From Eledone cirrhosa (taxonomy: Eukaryota), in contig CAXHJY010000315.1 in NCBI GenBank assembly GCA_964016885.1, positions 10,221 to 74,220 of the forward strand: a DNA stretch of 64,000 nucleotides. Reading direction: 5' to 3'. The position numbers and the translations under genes were made by a program. Below are positions 3,459 to 39,693 of the stretch, piece by piece. The notes beneath the pieces are model-generated. The model was not told the origin of the DNA, ran no database searches, and was given only the letters and a program-made list of their open reading frames with translations. Within the stretch, counting starts at the first letter, position 1; each line of letters begins with the position of its first letter.

Positions 3459-4219
3459 ATAATGATAAATTTGAAGACTAAAATCCAAAGAGGGCTCGAT
3501 ATATATATATATATATACACACACACATACATATAAGTATATATATGTATATATATATATGTATATATTTATAGATATATAAGTATATATATGTATATAT
3601 ATATATGTATATATTTATAGATATATAAGTATATATATGTATATGTATATATTTATAAATATATAAGTATATATATGTATATATATATATGTATATATTT
3701 ATAAATATATATGTATATGTATATATTTATAGATATATAAGTATATATGATGTATATATATATATATATATTTATATATAGATATATATGAATGCATGTA
3801 TGATGTATATATATTAATGTATATATGACGTATATATATTTATGAATGTATATATGATGTCTATATATATATATTTATGAATGTGTATATGATGTATATA
3901 TATATATACATATATATAAATTTATGAATGTGTATATGATGTATGTATTTATATATATATTTATGAATGTATAAATGATGTGTATATATATATATACATG
4001 CAGATTAAGGAGCGTGTGAGTGTATGAGAAAAAAAGGCCTATATATATGTGTGTGTGTGTGTGTGTGCATGCTATAGGTGTGTGTATAAAGTCTATGTGG
4101 GGGTGCAACGGTGTAAGAAAAGAAATGGCGGTATAAAAAAAAAATTTAGAGATCTAGTTAATACTGATTTAGTTGTTAATATTATTTAACTATAGGAGAT
4201 ACACTGAAAGAATTTTAGC

Positions 4220-21747: not shown

Positions 21748-21974
21748 GAGAGTATTGAAGTTTGCTTGAAGCATTGTGGAATAATAGGTAAATATCATTA
21801 AGTCGTTTGGAAGCCTCGACAATGCAAATAATGGGTAAATCTCCGGGTAACAAGATCCGGTGGTGGAGAGAGAGATGTAAGTGGGTGTACGTTGAGATGC
21901 GTGGTATGTATAAGACGTGTAGAGGAATGAAGGAAAGAGTATAAAGGATTAAATAAAAATATATAAAAATATAT

Positions 21975-22119
<145 letters not shown>

Positions 22120-22123
22120 TAAA

Positions 22124-22353
22124 TCCACCAATTAATGGTAGGGTCTAAACCGTATTAAGAACTCAATGTAATCCGTATGTAGAAGATGTCGTAAAACAAA
22201 GTTTAAAATACAAAATTTTCAACGATATAATTCATTGGATACAGAGTCAAAAATACAAACAGTAAAACAATGAAATTAAACAAAACACGGTTAATCCATG
22301 GTACAACTCGTGAATTAACCGTTTTTTTTGTTTAATTTCATTGTTTTACTATT

Positions 22354-22358
<5 letters not shown>
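22124..22358 (-). mobile_element. Fold-back family H (tail plus palindrome 22253-22358); duplicate at 23593-23827
   Basis: ATACAAACAGTAAAACAATGAAATTAAACAAAACACGGTTAAT / ATTAACCGTTTTTTTTGTTTAATTTCATTGTTTTACTATTTGTAT, then (TA)n. Confidence 0.75.
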
Positions 22359-22385
<27 letters not shown>

Positions 22386-22392
<7 letters not shown>

Positions 22393-22591
22393 ATACTTAG
22401 GGAGGGTCATGTTGCCAATAAGAAATACACGCACCAGATGCTTTCACTTCAATTTATTATAATAAATTGAAGTGAAAGCAACTGGTGCGTGTGTTTCTTA
22501 TTGGCAACATGACCCTCCCAAAGTATAACAATATCGGTTTCAACACACGTTTTCAGATAAAGAAGCTTGCTAAACAAATTCAGAAACGAAA
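22386..22591 (+). mobile_element. Fold-back family B, long copy; duplicate at 23855-24060
   Basis: ~74-bp arms with no spacer (centre AATTTATTA|TAATAAATT), 57-bp tail, (TA)n on both sides. Confidence 0.9.
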
Positions 22592-22680
22592 TATATATAT
22601 ATATATTTATATATATGTGGGGTGGGGGGTATATATGTATCTCTCTCTATATATACTATATATACATCCATATATATATA

Positions 22681-22867
22681 AATTGAGTCAGGACCCCGAC
22701 CGCTGAGCTCCGGCAGTTTCGACAGAGGTGTTCGGATCTAGCTGCCGAAACGGCCGGAGCTCAGCCGTCGGGGTCCTGACTCTTTTCCCATTACCCGCTG
22801 TACTACCCTTAGTATCGAGGACTCTGGTGCGTTATGGTCCACCTGATTTCTTACCACACTTTCTTTG

Positions 22868-22870
<3 letters not shown>
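22681..22870 (+). mobile_element. Fold-back family A copy, GAGTCAGG variant; duplicate at 24150-24339
   Basis: GAGTCAGGACCCCGAC..GAGCTCCGGC / GCCGGAGCTC..GTCGGGGTCCTGACTC plus tail. Confidence 0.9.
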
Positions 22871-22913
<43 letters not shown>

Positions 22914-22950
22914 TTATAAAACCATATTTATATATATATATACATATATG

Positions 22951-22988
<38 letters not shown>

Positions 22989-23142
22989 GAGAGAGAGGGT
23001 GTGCGGTGGTGGGACTGAGGAGACCCTTAATCATGGGGAGTACTCAATGCATGGGGAGATGCAGTATGTGTATAGAGATGTATATGTATATATATACGTA
23101 CATATATCATACATGTATATATACATATATGTATATATATAC

Positions 23143-23210
<68 letters not shown>

Positions 23211-23437
23211 GAGAGTATTGAAGTTTGCTTGAAGCATTGTGGAATAATAGGTAAATATCATTAAGTCGTTTGGAAGCCTCGACAATGCAAATAATGGGTA
23301 AATCTCCGGGTAACAAGATCCGGTGGTGGAGAGAGAGATGTAAGTGGGTGTACGTTGAGATGCGTGGTATGTATAAGACGTGTAGAGGAATGAAGGAAAG
23401 AGTATAAAGGATTAAATAAAAATATATAAAAATATAT

Positions 23438-23588
<151 letters not shown>

Positions 23589-23822
23589 TAAATCCACCAA
23601 TTAATGGTAGGGTCTAAACCGTATTAAGAACTCAATGTAATCCGTATGTAGAAGATGTCGTAAAACAAAGTTTAAAATACAAAATTTTCAACGATATAAT
23701 TCATTGGATACAGAGTCAAAAATACAAACAGTAAAACAATGAAATTAAACAAAACACGGTTAATCCATGGTACAACTCGTGAATTAACCGTTTTTTTTGT
23801 TTAATTTCATTGTTTTACTATT

Positions 23823-23861
<39 letters not shown>

Positions 23862-24336
23862 ATACTTAGGGAGGGTCATGTTGCCAATAAGAAATACACG
23901 CACCAGATGCTTTCACTTCAATTTATTATAATAAATTGAAGTGAAAGCAACTGGTGCGTGTGTTTCTTATTGGCAACATGACCCTCCCAAAGTATAACAA
24001 TATCGGTTTCAACACACGTTTTCAGATAAAGAAGCTTGCTAAACAAATTCAGAAACGAAATATATATATATATATTTATATATATGTGGGGTGGGGGGTA
24101 TATATGTATCTCTCTCTATATATACTATATATACATCCATATATATATAAATTGAGTCAGGACCCCGACCGCTGAGCTCCGGCAGTTTCGACAGAGGTGT
24201 TCGGATCTAGCTGCCGAAACGGCCGGAGCTCAGCCGTCGGGGTCCTGACTCTTTTCCCATTACCCGCTGTACTACCCTTAGTATCGAGGACTCTGGTGCG
24301 TTATGGTCCACCTGATTTCTTACCACACTTTCTTTG

Positions 24337-24382
<46 letters not shown>

Positions 24383-24419
24383 TTATAAAACCATATTTAT
24401 ATATATATATACATATATG

Positions 24420-24457
<38 letters not shown>

Positions 24458-24611
24458 GAGAGAGAGGGTGTGCGGTGGTGGGACTGAGGAGACCCTTAAT
24501 CATGGGGAGTACTCAATGCATGGGGAGATGCAGTATGTGTATAGAGATGTATATGTATATATATACGTACATATATCATACATGTATATATACATATATG
24601 TATATATATAC

Positions 24612-24706
<95 letters not shown>

Positions 24707-24784
24707 TATACTAATTTACTCTTTTACCTGTTTCAGCCATCCGGCTGAGGCCATGCTGGGGCACCGCCCTTATATATATATATA

Positions 24785-29473: not shown

Positions 29474-29479
<6 letters not shown>

Positions 29480-29659
29480 TGAGATTCTACAGGACTAGAA
29501 CTGTTTCATTCATTAGAAATCATCAGAGATTCCTGATGATTTCTAATGAATGAAACAGTTCTAGTCCTGTAGAATCTCATCTATATTAAAACTTTTATAC
29601 TCTGCTATGTATTGAGTACCTTACTTACTGTGGTTACCTCCGATTCAACCCGGAATAAC

Positions 29660-29660
<1 letters not shown>
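29474..29660 (+). mobile_element. Fold-back family D copy
   Basis: Perfect palindrome 29474-29585 plus a 75-bp tail; (TA)n on both sides. Confidence 0.9.
29526..29578 (+). ncRNA. Type I hammerhead ribozyme (family D)
   Basis: Stem I GAGATTC/GAATCTC; CTGATGA at 29533-29539; short stem II TTC-TAAT-GAA with a U.U base; GAAAC at 29552-29556; stem III CAG/CTG with CTAG in the loop; cleavage triplet GTA at 29569-29571. Confidence 0.8.
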
Positions 29661-29705
<45 letters not shown>

Positions 29706-29707
<2 letters not shown>

Positions 29708-29801
29708 GGTCCTACTCGTTCCTATTACCCACTCTACTACCCTAAGTATTGAGTACTTTGGTGCATTATGGTCCACCTGGTTCCTTACCACATTTCCTTC
29801 G

Positions 29802-29804
<3 letters not shown>
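29706..29804 (+). mobile_element. Family A copy starting right after the predicted GUC cleavage site
   Basis: (TA)n-GGGGTCCTACTCGTTCC..tail; in other copies GGGGTCC directly follows GAAACGGC-loop-GCCGTC. Confidence 0.85.
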
Positions 29805-29834
<30 letters not shown>

Positions 29835-29838
<4 letters not shown>

Positions 29839-30043
29839 AAAAGAGACAGGACCCCGACGGCTGAGCTCTGTCCGTGTTTCGACAGCTAGATCTGAACTCA
29901 GTTCAGATGTAGCTGTCGAAAAAGGGCCGGATCTCAGCCGTCGGGGTCCTGACTCTTTTCCTATTACCCACTCTACTACCCTAAGTATTGAGTACTCTGG
30001 CGCGTTATGGTCCACCTGGTTCCTTACCACACTTCCTTCATTA
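29835..30043 (+). mobile_element. Fold-back family A copy
   Basis: TAGGAAAAGAGACAGGACCCCGACGGCTGAG / CTCAGCCGTCGGGGTCCTGACTCTTTTCCTA plus tail. Confidence 0.9.
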
Positions 30044-30229
30044 TATATATATATATGATAATAAGGGCGCTGCGGAGTTGCAAATGGGTTACATATGAAA
30101 AAAGTTTGTCCTTCATCAGTGATCTTCCAACCATCAGAGGCATTTCATCGCTTTAAAGACCATATACCTCCGGTTGGTGCGAGCAACGGCTAAAAAAAGT
30201 CGTTGGGACACGTAAATAAAGGGTAAACA

Positions 30230-30489: not shown

Positions 30490-30711
30490 ATATAATGTTT
30501 AATATAGAAATGGATAATATAGTATTAGAACTGTTTCATTCGAAGTAATTCATCAGGCTTTCGAGATGATTTTTTTTTCGAATGAAACAGTTCTAGTCCT
30601 GTAAAAGCCATTTCTATATTAAATATTATATATATACTCTACTATTTATTGAGTACCTTACTTAGTGTAGTTACCTCGATTGAACCCCAGGATACTCACA
30701 CTCACAGACAC

Positions 30712-36502: not shown

Positions 36503-36620
36503 TCATATTTGCAAATCCTAAAAAAATACGTCATAACTTTATTTATTTTTATGACATTATTAATAACACTTGACTGAAGAACATGACTTAAAAGAATTAA
36601 TTCTGTGATTCGACTTCTTT

Positions 36621-39600
36621 CTTTGAAAGTCCTTAAACACAACAAAAACACCGCCAGAATTACGCCCACATACATACAAACGAATATATACACACATACA
36701 CATCTTTGAAAGTCCTTATACACAATAAAAACACCGCCAGAATTATCCCACATACATACAAACGAATGTATACACACATACACATCTTTGAAAGTCCTTA
36801 TACACAACAAAAACACCGCCAGAATTATCCCACATACATACAAACGAATGTATACACACATACACAACTTTGAAAGTCCTTATACACTAAAAAAACACTG
36901 CCAGAATTATCCCACATACATACAAACGAATGTATACACACATACACACTTTGAAAGGGCTTAAACACAACAAAAACACCGCCAGATTTATCCCACATAC
37001 ATACAAACGAATGTATACACACATACACATTTTTGAAAGTCCTTATACACAAAAAAAAAACACCGCCAGAATTATCCCACATACATACAAACGAATGTAT
37101 ACACACATACACATCTTTGAAAGTCCTTATACACAACAAAAACACCGCCAGAATTATCCCACATACATACAAACGAATGTATACACACATACACATCTTT
37201 GAAAGGGCTTATACACAACAAAATCACCGCCAGAATTACCCCACATACATACAAACGAATGTATACACACATACACATCTTTGAAAGTCCTTATACACAA
37301 CAAAAACACCGCCAGAATTACCCCCACATACATACAAACGAATGTATACACACATACACATCTTTGAAAGTCCTTATACACAACAAAAACACCGCCAGAA
37401 TTATCCCACATACATACAAACGAATGTATACACACATACACATCTTTGAAAGTCCTTATACGCAACAAAAACACCGCCAGAATTATCCCACATACATACA
37501 AACGAATGTATACACACATACACATCTTTGAAAGTCCTTATACGCAACAAAAACACCGCCAGAATTATCCCACATACATACAAACGAATGTATACACACA
37601 TACACATCTTTGAAAGTCCTTAAACACAACAAAAACACCGCCAGATTTATCCCACATACATACAAACGAATGTATACACACATACACATCTTTGAAAGTC
37701 CTTATACACAACAAAAACACCGCCAGAATTACCCCACATACATACAAACGAATGTATACACACATACACATCTTTGAAAGTGCTTATACACAACAAAAAC
37801 ACCGCCAGAATTATCCCACATACATACAAACGAATGTATACACACATACACATCTTTGAAAGTCCTTATACACAACAAAAACACCGCCAGAATTACCCCA
37901 CATACATACAAACGAATGTATACACACATACACATCTTTGAAAGTCCTTATACACAACAAAAACACCGCCAGAATTACGCCCACATACATACAAACGAAT
38001 GTATACACACATACACATCTTTGAAAGTCCTTATACACAACAAAAACACCGCCAGAATTACGCCCACATACATACAAACGAATGTATACACACATACACA
38101 TCTTTGAAAGTCCTTATACACAACAAAAACACCGCCAGTATTACGCCCACATACATACAAACGAATGTATACACACATACACATCTTTGAAAGTCCTTAT
38201 ACACAACAAAAACACCGCCAGAATTACGCCCACATACATACAAACGAATGTATACACACATACACATCTTTGAAAGTCCTTATACACAAAAAAAAAACAC
38301 CGCCAGAATTATCCCACATACATACAAACGAATGTATACACACATACACATCTTTGAAAGTCCTTATACACAACAAAAACACCGCCAGAATTACCCCCAC
38401 ATACATACAAACGAATGTATACACACATACACATCTTTGAAAGTCCTTATACACAACAAAAACACCGCCAGAATTATCCCACATACATACAAGCGAATGT
38501 ATACACACATACACATCTTTGAAAGTCCTTATACACAACAAAAACACCGCCAGAATTACGCCCACATACATACAAACGAATGTATACACACATACACATC
38601 TTTGAAAGTCCTTATACACAACAAAAACACCGCCAGAATTATCCCACATACATACAAGCGAATGTATACACACATACACATCTTTGAAAGTCCTTATACA
38701 CAACAAAAACACCGCCAGAATTACGCCCACATACATACAAACGAATGTATACACACATACACATCTTTGAAAGTCCTTATACACAACAAAAACACCGCCA
38801 GAATTATCCCACATACATACAAACGAATGTATACACACATACACATCTTTGAAAGTCTTTATACACAACAAAAACACCGCCAGAATTATCCCACAAACAT
38901 ACAAACGAATGTATACACACATACACATCTTTGAAAGTCCTTATACACAACAAAAACACCGCCAGAATTATCCCACATACATACAAACGAATGTATATAC
39001 ACATACACATCTTTGAAAGTCCTTATACACAACAAAAACACCGCCAGAATTATCCCACATACATACAAACGAATGTATACACACATACACATCTTTGAAA
39101 GTACTTATACACAACAAAAACACCGCCAGAATTACGCCCACATACATACAAACGAATGTATACACACATACACATCTTTGAAAGTCCTTATACACAACAA
39201 AAACACCGCCAGAATTATCCCACAAACATACAAACGAATGTATACACACATACACATCTTTGAAAGTCCTTATACACAACAAAAACACCGCCAGAATTAT
39301 CCCACATACATACAAACGAATGTATACACACATACACATCTTTGAAAGTCCTTATACACAACAAAAACACCGCCAGAATTATCCCACATACATACAAACG
39401 AATGTATACACACATACACATCTTTGAAAGTCCTTATACACAACAAAAACACCGCCAGAATTATCCCACATACATACAAACGAATATATACACACATACA
39501 CATCTTTGAAAGTCCTTATACACAACAAAAACACCGCCAGAATTATCCCACATACATACAAACGAATGTATACACACATACACATCTTTGAAAGTCCTTA

Positions 39601-39693
39601 TACACAACAAAAACACCGCCAGAATTATCCCACATACATACAAACGAATGTATACACACATATACAACTTTGAAAGTGCTTACACACAACAAA
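36621..39693. repeat. 82-bp tandem satellite, about 37 units
   Basis: Unit CTTTGAAAGTCCTTATACACAACAAAAACACCGCCAGAATTATCCCACATACATACAAACGAATGTATACACACATACACAT; 82-84 bp variants; ORF-track periodicity is 82/83. Confidence 0.97.

Follow-up and report, generated by a model that had tools for sequence, protein, structure and literature searches.

A truncated Penelope-like copy in Eledone cirrhosa begins at the predicted cleavage site of a hammerhead ribozyme

The DNA considered here, termed the window, is a 64,000-nucleotide stretch of the Eledone cirrhosa genome (contig CAXHJY010000315.1). On its plus strand, positions 29706..29805 are occupied by a copy of a repeat termed family A, which corresponds to the first 100 nucleotides (+1 to +100) of a Hydra-clade Penelope-like element's cut-to-cut unit, numbered by comparison with an intact unit in array L381. 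The copy sits in a (TA)n target. A perfect run (29661..29705) forms its left flank and a further repeat run (29803..29836) its right flank, the final TAT being common to copy and target. As the first-pass annotation of the window stated, the copy begins with GGGGTCC straight after (TA)n, and no inverted arm is present between the run at 29661-29705 and the copy. Its 5ʹ end coincides with the predicted hammerhead cut, and the plus-strand bases GGGGT (29706..29710), the 3ʹ strand of stem I, would be the opening bases of the predicted 3ʹ cleavage product. In a neighbouring copy, the identical G run is preceded by GCCGTC (29937-29942|29943). The 29706 junction is without microhomology because the flanking base is T and the template base is C. 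A second fixed end of family A, TTCC-TAT (29719..29725, plus strand), which in two-armed copies marks where the tail-less inverted arm terminates on its outer side, is unused in this copy.

The copy is bordered by other insertions. On its right lies a two-armed family A copy (29837..30045, plus strand) that is older, contains only the 3ʹ half of the ribozyme, and reads through the cut site (29942|29943). Compared with the 7 closest of its 46 full-length subfamily relatives, the 29706 copy has a single difference in 99 bases, and it belongs to a different subfamily from the adjacent palindrome; it is therefore a separate, young insertion. Among the 11 family A tail anchors listed for the window, it alone begins at the cut base. 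On the left, the perfect (TA)n run doubles as the right flank of a two-armed family B element (29479..29660, plus strand) whose minimal hammerhead motif, of C3-G8 type, is complete (CTGATGA at 29533). Family B is a different family from A, yet its insertion anatomy is alike: two-armed (TA)n insertions are found at 29479-29660 and 30513-30694, and their tail has TATTGAGTAC in common with family A. Further hammerhead-like motifs (CTGAWGA ... GAAAT) from at least three other repeat families, two of which occur as inverted pairs, lie at 1584 (-), 30908 (+), 39847 (-), 40061 (+), 40377 (-), 40495 (+), 42485 (-), and 50969 (-). The window also contains a direct duplication of about 1.47 kb (21959-23209 and 23422-24710), each part with a family A copy (22685 and 24154), which is either a segmental duplication or an assembly artefact, and a tandem array at 36620-39693 made up of 37 copies of an 82-bp unit with 96% matches.

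Family A is abundant, with at least 37,432 genome matches to a 16-base tail anchor. The typical copy is about 200 bp long and lies in (TA)n, with an inverted arm followed by a sense arm whose tail runs to +100; most copies are palindromes. The outer ends are fixed at approximately +20 (inverted arm) and +100, and both share TAT with the target. A hairpin is predicted past the fixed end at +100, and the hairpin just past the fixed end at +20 is not the minimum-energy fold there.

Family A is the truncated end of an autonomous, protein-coding Penelope-like element of 3.54 kb, because long copies run via a 3ʹ UTR and the tail/5ʹ UTR into an open reading frame (ORF) of reverse transcriptase/GIY-YIG type. 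These long relatives were reached via copies chosen for ending at the cut. The parent unit of 3,543 bp is ordered as cut site, tail to +100, 5ʹ UTR, ATG at +190, ORF, a 1.2-kb 3ʹ UTR, and hammerhead, and the tail continues into the 5ʹ UTR in 288 counted internal junctions. An intact ORF of 719 amino acids comes from an array whose units measure 3,543 bp; two of these units match each other at 3,537 of 3,542 aligned bases. By eye, the single ORF contains the motifs FDIESYY, MG, LYRDDG, and VIYQC...AYIG, in keeping with a reverse transcriptase followed by a C-terminal GIY-YIG endonuclease, together with SDKTG, CNCPDRSIC, CNLC, and CKH, corresponding to the DKT, CxCx5C linker, CxxC, and CxH of the Hydra clade, in which CxxC and CxH lie around the conserved E and N and CCHH is absent; near the N terminus it has RWR where the clade has RWK. 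Pfam and PDB searches of the ORF gave no match, and its Atlas neighbours (0.96-0.99), which serve as leads only, include some clusters in which GIY-YIG is found in 26-50% of members and RVT_1 in 18-92%. Hydra-clade traits are also evident in the insertions, including the (TA)n target, partial and full tandems, an inverted truncated arm, and a tail at one end. On its motifs, the parent element is assigned to the Hydra clade as a new member. The RNA intermediate proposed in the first-pass annotation is borne out, the parent being a reverse-transcriptase element.

Head-to-tail arrays of near-identical full units of 3.53-3.54 kb occur in L381 and L382 (both at G000:C1:91.47-91.49 Mb), at C1:437.20 Mb, and at C2:320.55 Mb; the array at C1:91.49 terminates in a tandem run of a short ORF piece of about 55 bp. 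Another array, L380 (G000:C2:356.03 Mb), consists of a 299-bp internal-deletion derivative with seven full units, each bearing a complete ribozyme with a shortened loop II, and represents a retrozyme-like array arising from a coding element. This array alone fits the noncoding tandem-monomer description of a retrozyme. For family A as a whole, classification as a non-LTR retrozyme, built of noncoding tandem monomers of a few hundred nt that each bear a complete hammerhead, was rejected, the copies being truncated ends of a coding unit. A MITE or Helitron reading was likewise dropped in view of arm length that varies at the centre, matching variants, and continuation into the reverse transcriptase ORF.

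The first-pass annotation described the ribozyme of family A as a half-hammerhead. The ribozyme call stands, but the motif is not a half: it is complete in long copies, and the short copies are truncated, those in the window retaining just the 3ʹ part. What the short copies lack is ACCCC, a core that reads TTGANAA, and the stem II 5ʹ strand, and this 5ʹ half with TTGANAA has 3,689 genome matches. ACCCC lies directly 5ʹ of the core in long copies and pairs with GGGGT (97% of cells being paired across 14 aligned copies). In supplying the missing strand that pairs with GGGGU and carries the core, the long copies also confirm that the cut site had been rightly placed. The core order of a type I hammerhead (stem I, core, stem II, GAAA, stem III, NUH, stem I) is present in 24 distinct complete copies. 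The 3-8 pair is U3-A8 in all 24, core invariance being built into the search pattern, and position 7 is free (G in 8, A in 6, T in 6, and C in 4). Over all stems, 92.5% of cells are paired in the 14 aligned copies. Loop II is approximately 37 nt long, and stem III is a GC-rich hairpin of 5-6 bp with its 3ʹ foot 2 nt away from the cut site; given a stem III of this length, the monomer ribozyme could be active. The "half-hammerhead" is best described as one half of a full type I motif whose core is U3-A8 and for which self-cleavage is predicted.

The structural support that the Eledone genome provides by itself is modest. Only 1 of 18 pairs shows a double change, a value equalled or exceeded in 177 of 500 shuffles of copies that are about 90% identical. 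The hammerhead fold (-23.1 kcal/mol) is not the minimum-energy fold, an alternative at -25.5 kcal/mol being 2.4 kcal/mol lower, and Rfam searches gave no match with the window, nor with the complete ribozyme at E values up to 10. Two other candidates were set aside. A CTGAWGA core 5ʹ of the half ribozyme has 30 matches, none with stem I in place, and these are arm joints or chimeras. An apparent fixed 5ʹ end near -66 (8 matches) is a sequence variant selected by the search pattern, and long copies extend past it.

The first-pass annotation proposed a histogram of 5ʹ ends as a check of the cut site, and such a histogram has its peak at the cut base. The sample comprised 5ʹ ends that abut a TA run within 30 nt of the anchor, taken from the first 100 of 462 matches to a single pattern of junction (T followed by G/C) that required exact anchors; 94 regions were fetched and scored by script. 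Thirty-five of the 100 scored rows were left out (25 inverted arms, 5 incidental anchors, 2 mis-scored palindromes, 2 inversions, and 1 duplicate). Among the matches listed, 15 of the 65 cleaned, non-inverted arms start at offset 0, compared with 0 to 2 at each neighbouring position (0, 2, and 1 at -3 to -1; 2, 1, and 1 at +1 to +3), or 7 for the six neighbours pooled. The binomial p value is 3e-9 against a flat spread and 1e-8 against the six neighbours. The next-highest bins (4-6 arms) are positions where a template T or TA matches the target, and against the best of these microhomology-assisted bins the spike stands at only 15 to 6 (p 0.04).

Exact patterns searched genome-wide gave 89 arms that end at 0 before five A/T bases, compared with 45 for -1 and -2 pooled; the bins from +1 to +3 rest on the 65-arm sample. 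Counted by eye, 45 of the 89 and 16 of the 45 lie in strict TA repeats, and about a dozen of the 45 arms at -1 and -2 are palindrome centres that share a GAATTA joint. Position -2 has the help of microhomology, yet the pooled count at -1 and -2 stays below that at offset 0. The spike at the cut base is real, and at the level of the family the excess is beyond chance; a single copy alone is uninformative.

A further set of traces is found in copies that are expanded at the cut site. A pattern spanning -7 to +7, a 14-nt interval, recovered 68 copies with at least 3 extra bases. Nine of these contain A/T-rich, non-duplicated inserts, all located between GTC and GGGG with no base lost; the remaining expansions include one replacement ending at +1 and are otherwise local duplications or longer G runs. 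Among the 40 expanded copies that were examined for the core, namely the 9 insert copies and 31 others, a complete core is present in 8 of 9 insert copies versus 1 of 31 control expansions (p 1e-6). The ninth insert copy (L386) carries an identical insert in both arms, as would be expected had the insert been in the template.

Several insertions use the cut base more than once. In L084, the inverted arm ends at the cut base and two sense segments start there, giving three junctions; in L383, both arms end at the cut base with a purine-rich spacer between them; in L398, two segments start at the cut base; and L351 likewise uses it repeatedly within one insertion. L396 (G000:C12:24548.4 kb) contains five direct 24-bp repeats, each comprising the 17 nt that follow the cut, together with TA, and followed as a group by a full tail, which reflect either repeated re-priming or later slippage; L086 has a similar repeat. 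Additionally, in three copies the cut base is fused to sequence further inside the same unit (at +172, +246, and +651), and joins to ORF sequence run in the sense direction. These repeated junctions and joins are probable traces of an enzyme that met a physical RNA end and then jumped. End-to-end jumping with added bases is reportedly known for the R2 element.

Other composite insertions were also observed. In L038, L047, L054, and L058, a family A arm passes straight into an inverted arm or a half ribozyme from another hammerhead family, and these are chimeric insertions from two RNAs. Poly(A) or poly(T) spacers of 13-26 nt lie at the palindrome centres of L117, L175, and L273, which suggests untemplated addition of A to the cDNA end.

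The cleaved-RNA route is a minor one. This is evident from an unselected series, the first listed rows of tail-anchor matches, in which none of 97 tail arms ends at the cut base, 10 end downstream, and 87 read through. The 89 genome-wide arms at offset 0, which exclude those joined to an inverted arm, amount to about 0.2% of anchors. Among arms in which the whole unit had already been copied, inspected by eye, offset 0 is the stop for 3 of the first 100 in the list. Self-cleaved RNA, the probable template of the 29706 copy, is seldom used as a template across the family.

Most arms stop elsewhere. Of those that reach -34, 58 of 68 end at -34 to -48, within loop II, with a sharp upstream edge, and tail-less arms show the identical edge; an example in the window lies at 29890-29900. 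Arms with the full unit copied stop in loop II less often (4 of 23), and in L197 one insertion records two jumps from -44. The loop II stop looks like a second, far commoner RNA 5ʹ end and possibly reflects a transcription start inside the ribozyme. TCATTT and TTAGTC at the stop resemble the Drosophila initiator. An internal promoter has been described for Penelope (PMC2377424). A search for a cap signature, an extra G before the loop II stop, lent no support: in the unselected set, the untemplated neighbour is G in 3 of 20 cases. Splicing at the loop II TTTAG was considered and is unsupported, no recurrent upstream exon being seen by eye at the joints.

The best reading of the 29706 copy is that it was probably reverse-transcribed, as a run-off product, from a self-cleaved RNA by the parent element's own enzyme, with cleavage deduced from DNA. 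The main rival, which is unlikely overall, holds that the enzyme stalled on uncut RNA at the foot of the folded ribozyme, either at stem III or at the three-way junction, or, as a variant, that the stall needs the whole folded ribozyme. The GC-rich stem III hairpin, with its foot so close to the site, would suit such a stall, as would the continuity of most templates across the cut site and the use of unprocessed RNA in vitro by PAc, the Poseidon element of Anolis carolinensis (described in PMC11167929). By our own reasoning on reverse transcriptase stalling, however, a stop at a hairpin should give ends at -1 or -2, and those bins are low. Moreover, short copies also possess stem III, yet 8 of 9 inserts accompany a complete core, and a stall leaves unexplained the insert copied into both arms of L386.

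A considerably less probable explanation is that the copy is an ordinary random 5ʹ truncation that happened to coincide with the cut base, despite the excess in the family. Neighbouring positions receive about 1.2 ends each versus 15, so roughly 1 in 12 offset-0 copies is expected to be background of this kind; about nine-tenths of them are explained by the excess, and the 29706 junction has no microhomology to attract an end. Long perfect palindromes beside (TA)n are unstable and most family A copies are palindromic, but the notion that the 29706 copy began as a two-armed palindrome and later shed its hairpin through a deletion whose breakpoints fell preferentially at the G run is very improbable, as it gives no account of A/T-rich inserts without base loss, of sense joins to the ORF, or of both arms ending at 0, and breaks at +1, +2, and +3 within the same G run are rare.

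Under reverse transcription from a self-cleaved RNA, the endonuclease would nick the (TA)n target, and priming by the nicked DNA would take place at +100, with the other DNA end priming at +20. The enzyme would copy 100 nt and then fall off the 5ʹ-OH end left by cleavage, after which the cDNA would be joined to the other target end to yield a copy of the 29706 type. Alternatively, the enzyme would jump, either to another RNA end, namely the 3ʹ end that cleavage leaves on the unit, in many cases with additional A/T-rich bases, or from the cut end to an internal point of its own RNA. In most insertions, the templates would be continuous across the site, either uncut or seamlessly re-ligated, with copying mostly stopping in loop II. 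Judged from these DNA traces, the ribozyme likely cuts in living cells. The 3.5-kb arrays and the 299-bp derivative array fit a circular template, and tandem transcripts would also yield them.

A more speculative scheme, which we regard as doubtful though worth stating, places the start of the mRNA in loop II, about 41-45 nt before the cut, with the leader removed in trans, a 3.5-kb circle, and three RNA states recorded in the genome. The mRNA would then bear a half hammerhead at its 5ʹ end and a whole hammerhead at its 3ʹ end. The 3ʹ core strand would complete the 5ʹ half across the ends and remove the capped leader, and the resulting cut-to-cut RNA would close into a 3.5-kb circle. Under this scheme, RNA with the uncut leader would give rise to the 200-bp palindromes that make up most copies, the circle to long arms and the 3.5-kb tandem arrays, and the cut linear RNA to the 29706 copy. 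On cut RNA, the telomerase-related enzyme would jump from end to end, and in L396 it would have re-primed five times on the first 20 nt.

The tens of thousands of family A copies constitute a natural end-mapping experiment. It reveals an excess of ends at the cut, re-joined ends whose extra bases track the complete ribozyme, and a larger stop zone in loop II. Neither the class of element nor the U3-A8 core nor the pair of fixed ends is new. Full-text searches covering few subscription journals found no report of genomic cut-site traces, and the role of the hammerhead in Penelope-like elements is called unclear in one account of the Hydra clade (PMC8557442).

That clade, and specifically Hydra-1_Obim (Craig et al. 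2021, PMC8557442), provides the closest parallels in protein and insertion. As described there, its members resemble the Eledone element in having a single ORF with DKT, a CxCx5C linker, and C-terminal CxxC and CxH, as well as a (TA)n target, an inverted 5ʹ-truncated arm, a tail at one end, and a hammerhead at the 3ʹ end. In the supplement to the same paper, N-terminal and reverse transcriptase stretches of the Hydra-1_Obim protein resemble the 719-aa ORF by eye. The Eledone element is nevertheless a different family. According to PMC8557442, Hydra elements are generally shorter than 3 kb (2,507 bp for Hydra-1_Obim), compared with 3.54 kb here; they have RWK instead of RWR and a tail of 30-40 nt instead of 80 nt, and the core of Hydra-1_Obim is CUGAAGA, in contrast to the U3-A8 core and loop II of about 37 nt found here.

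Animal non-LTR retrozymes (Cervera and de la Pena 2020, PMC7229834; Li et al. 2026, bioRxiv 10.64898/2026.07.22.740005) are similar in their type I hammerhead, and the 299-bp derivative array, with one ribozyme per unit (L380), is like them. As these sources present them, however, they are tandem noncoding monomers, whereas family A is the truncated end of a coding element. The hammerheads of the Schistosoma Penelope-like element Cercyon (Cervera and de la Pena 2014, PMC4209133) share the U3-A8 core swap, the G10.1-C11.1 pair, an unpaired base where stem II begins, and a palindromic loop III, but are described as minimal, in contrast to the stem III of 5-6 bp here. The same paper proposes cleavage, ligation, copying of more than one unit, and a circular template, and states that in vivo evidence is absent.

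PAc (Frangieh et al. 2024, PMC11167929) offers a biochemical counterpart. As reported for that element, both strands of the DNA undergo extension, two fixed RNA sites just 3ʹ of the hammerhead serve as internal starting points for copying, and uncut RNA is the main template; all of this is alike in family A. Unlike the situation here, in which both starts share TAT with (TA)n, the PAc start sites are reported to have no homology to the target. Cleavage was dispensable for PAc insertion in vitro, and in the RNA-seq data described no reads begin or end at the cut. PAc is thus without reported RNA ends at the cut, whereas in Eledone genomic copies record ends and re-joins there. These traces name the exact bases at which the role of the hammerhead can be tested, and they support the cleave-and-rejoin model of 2014.
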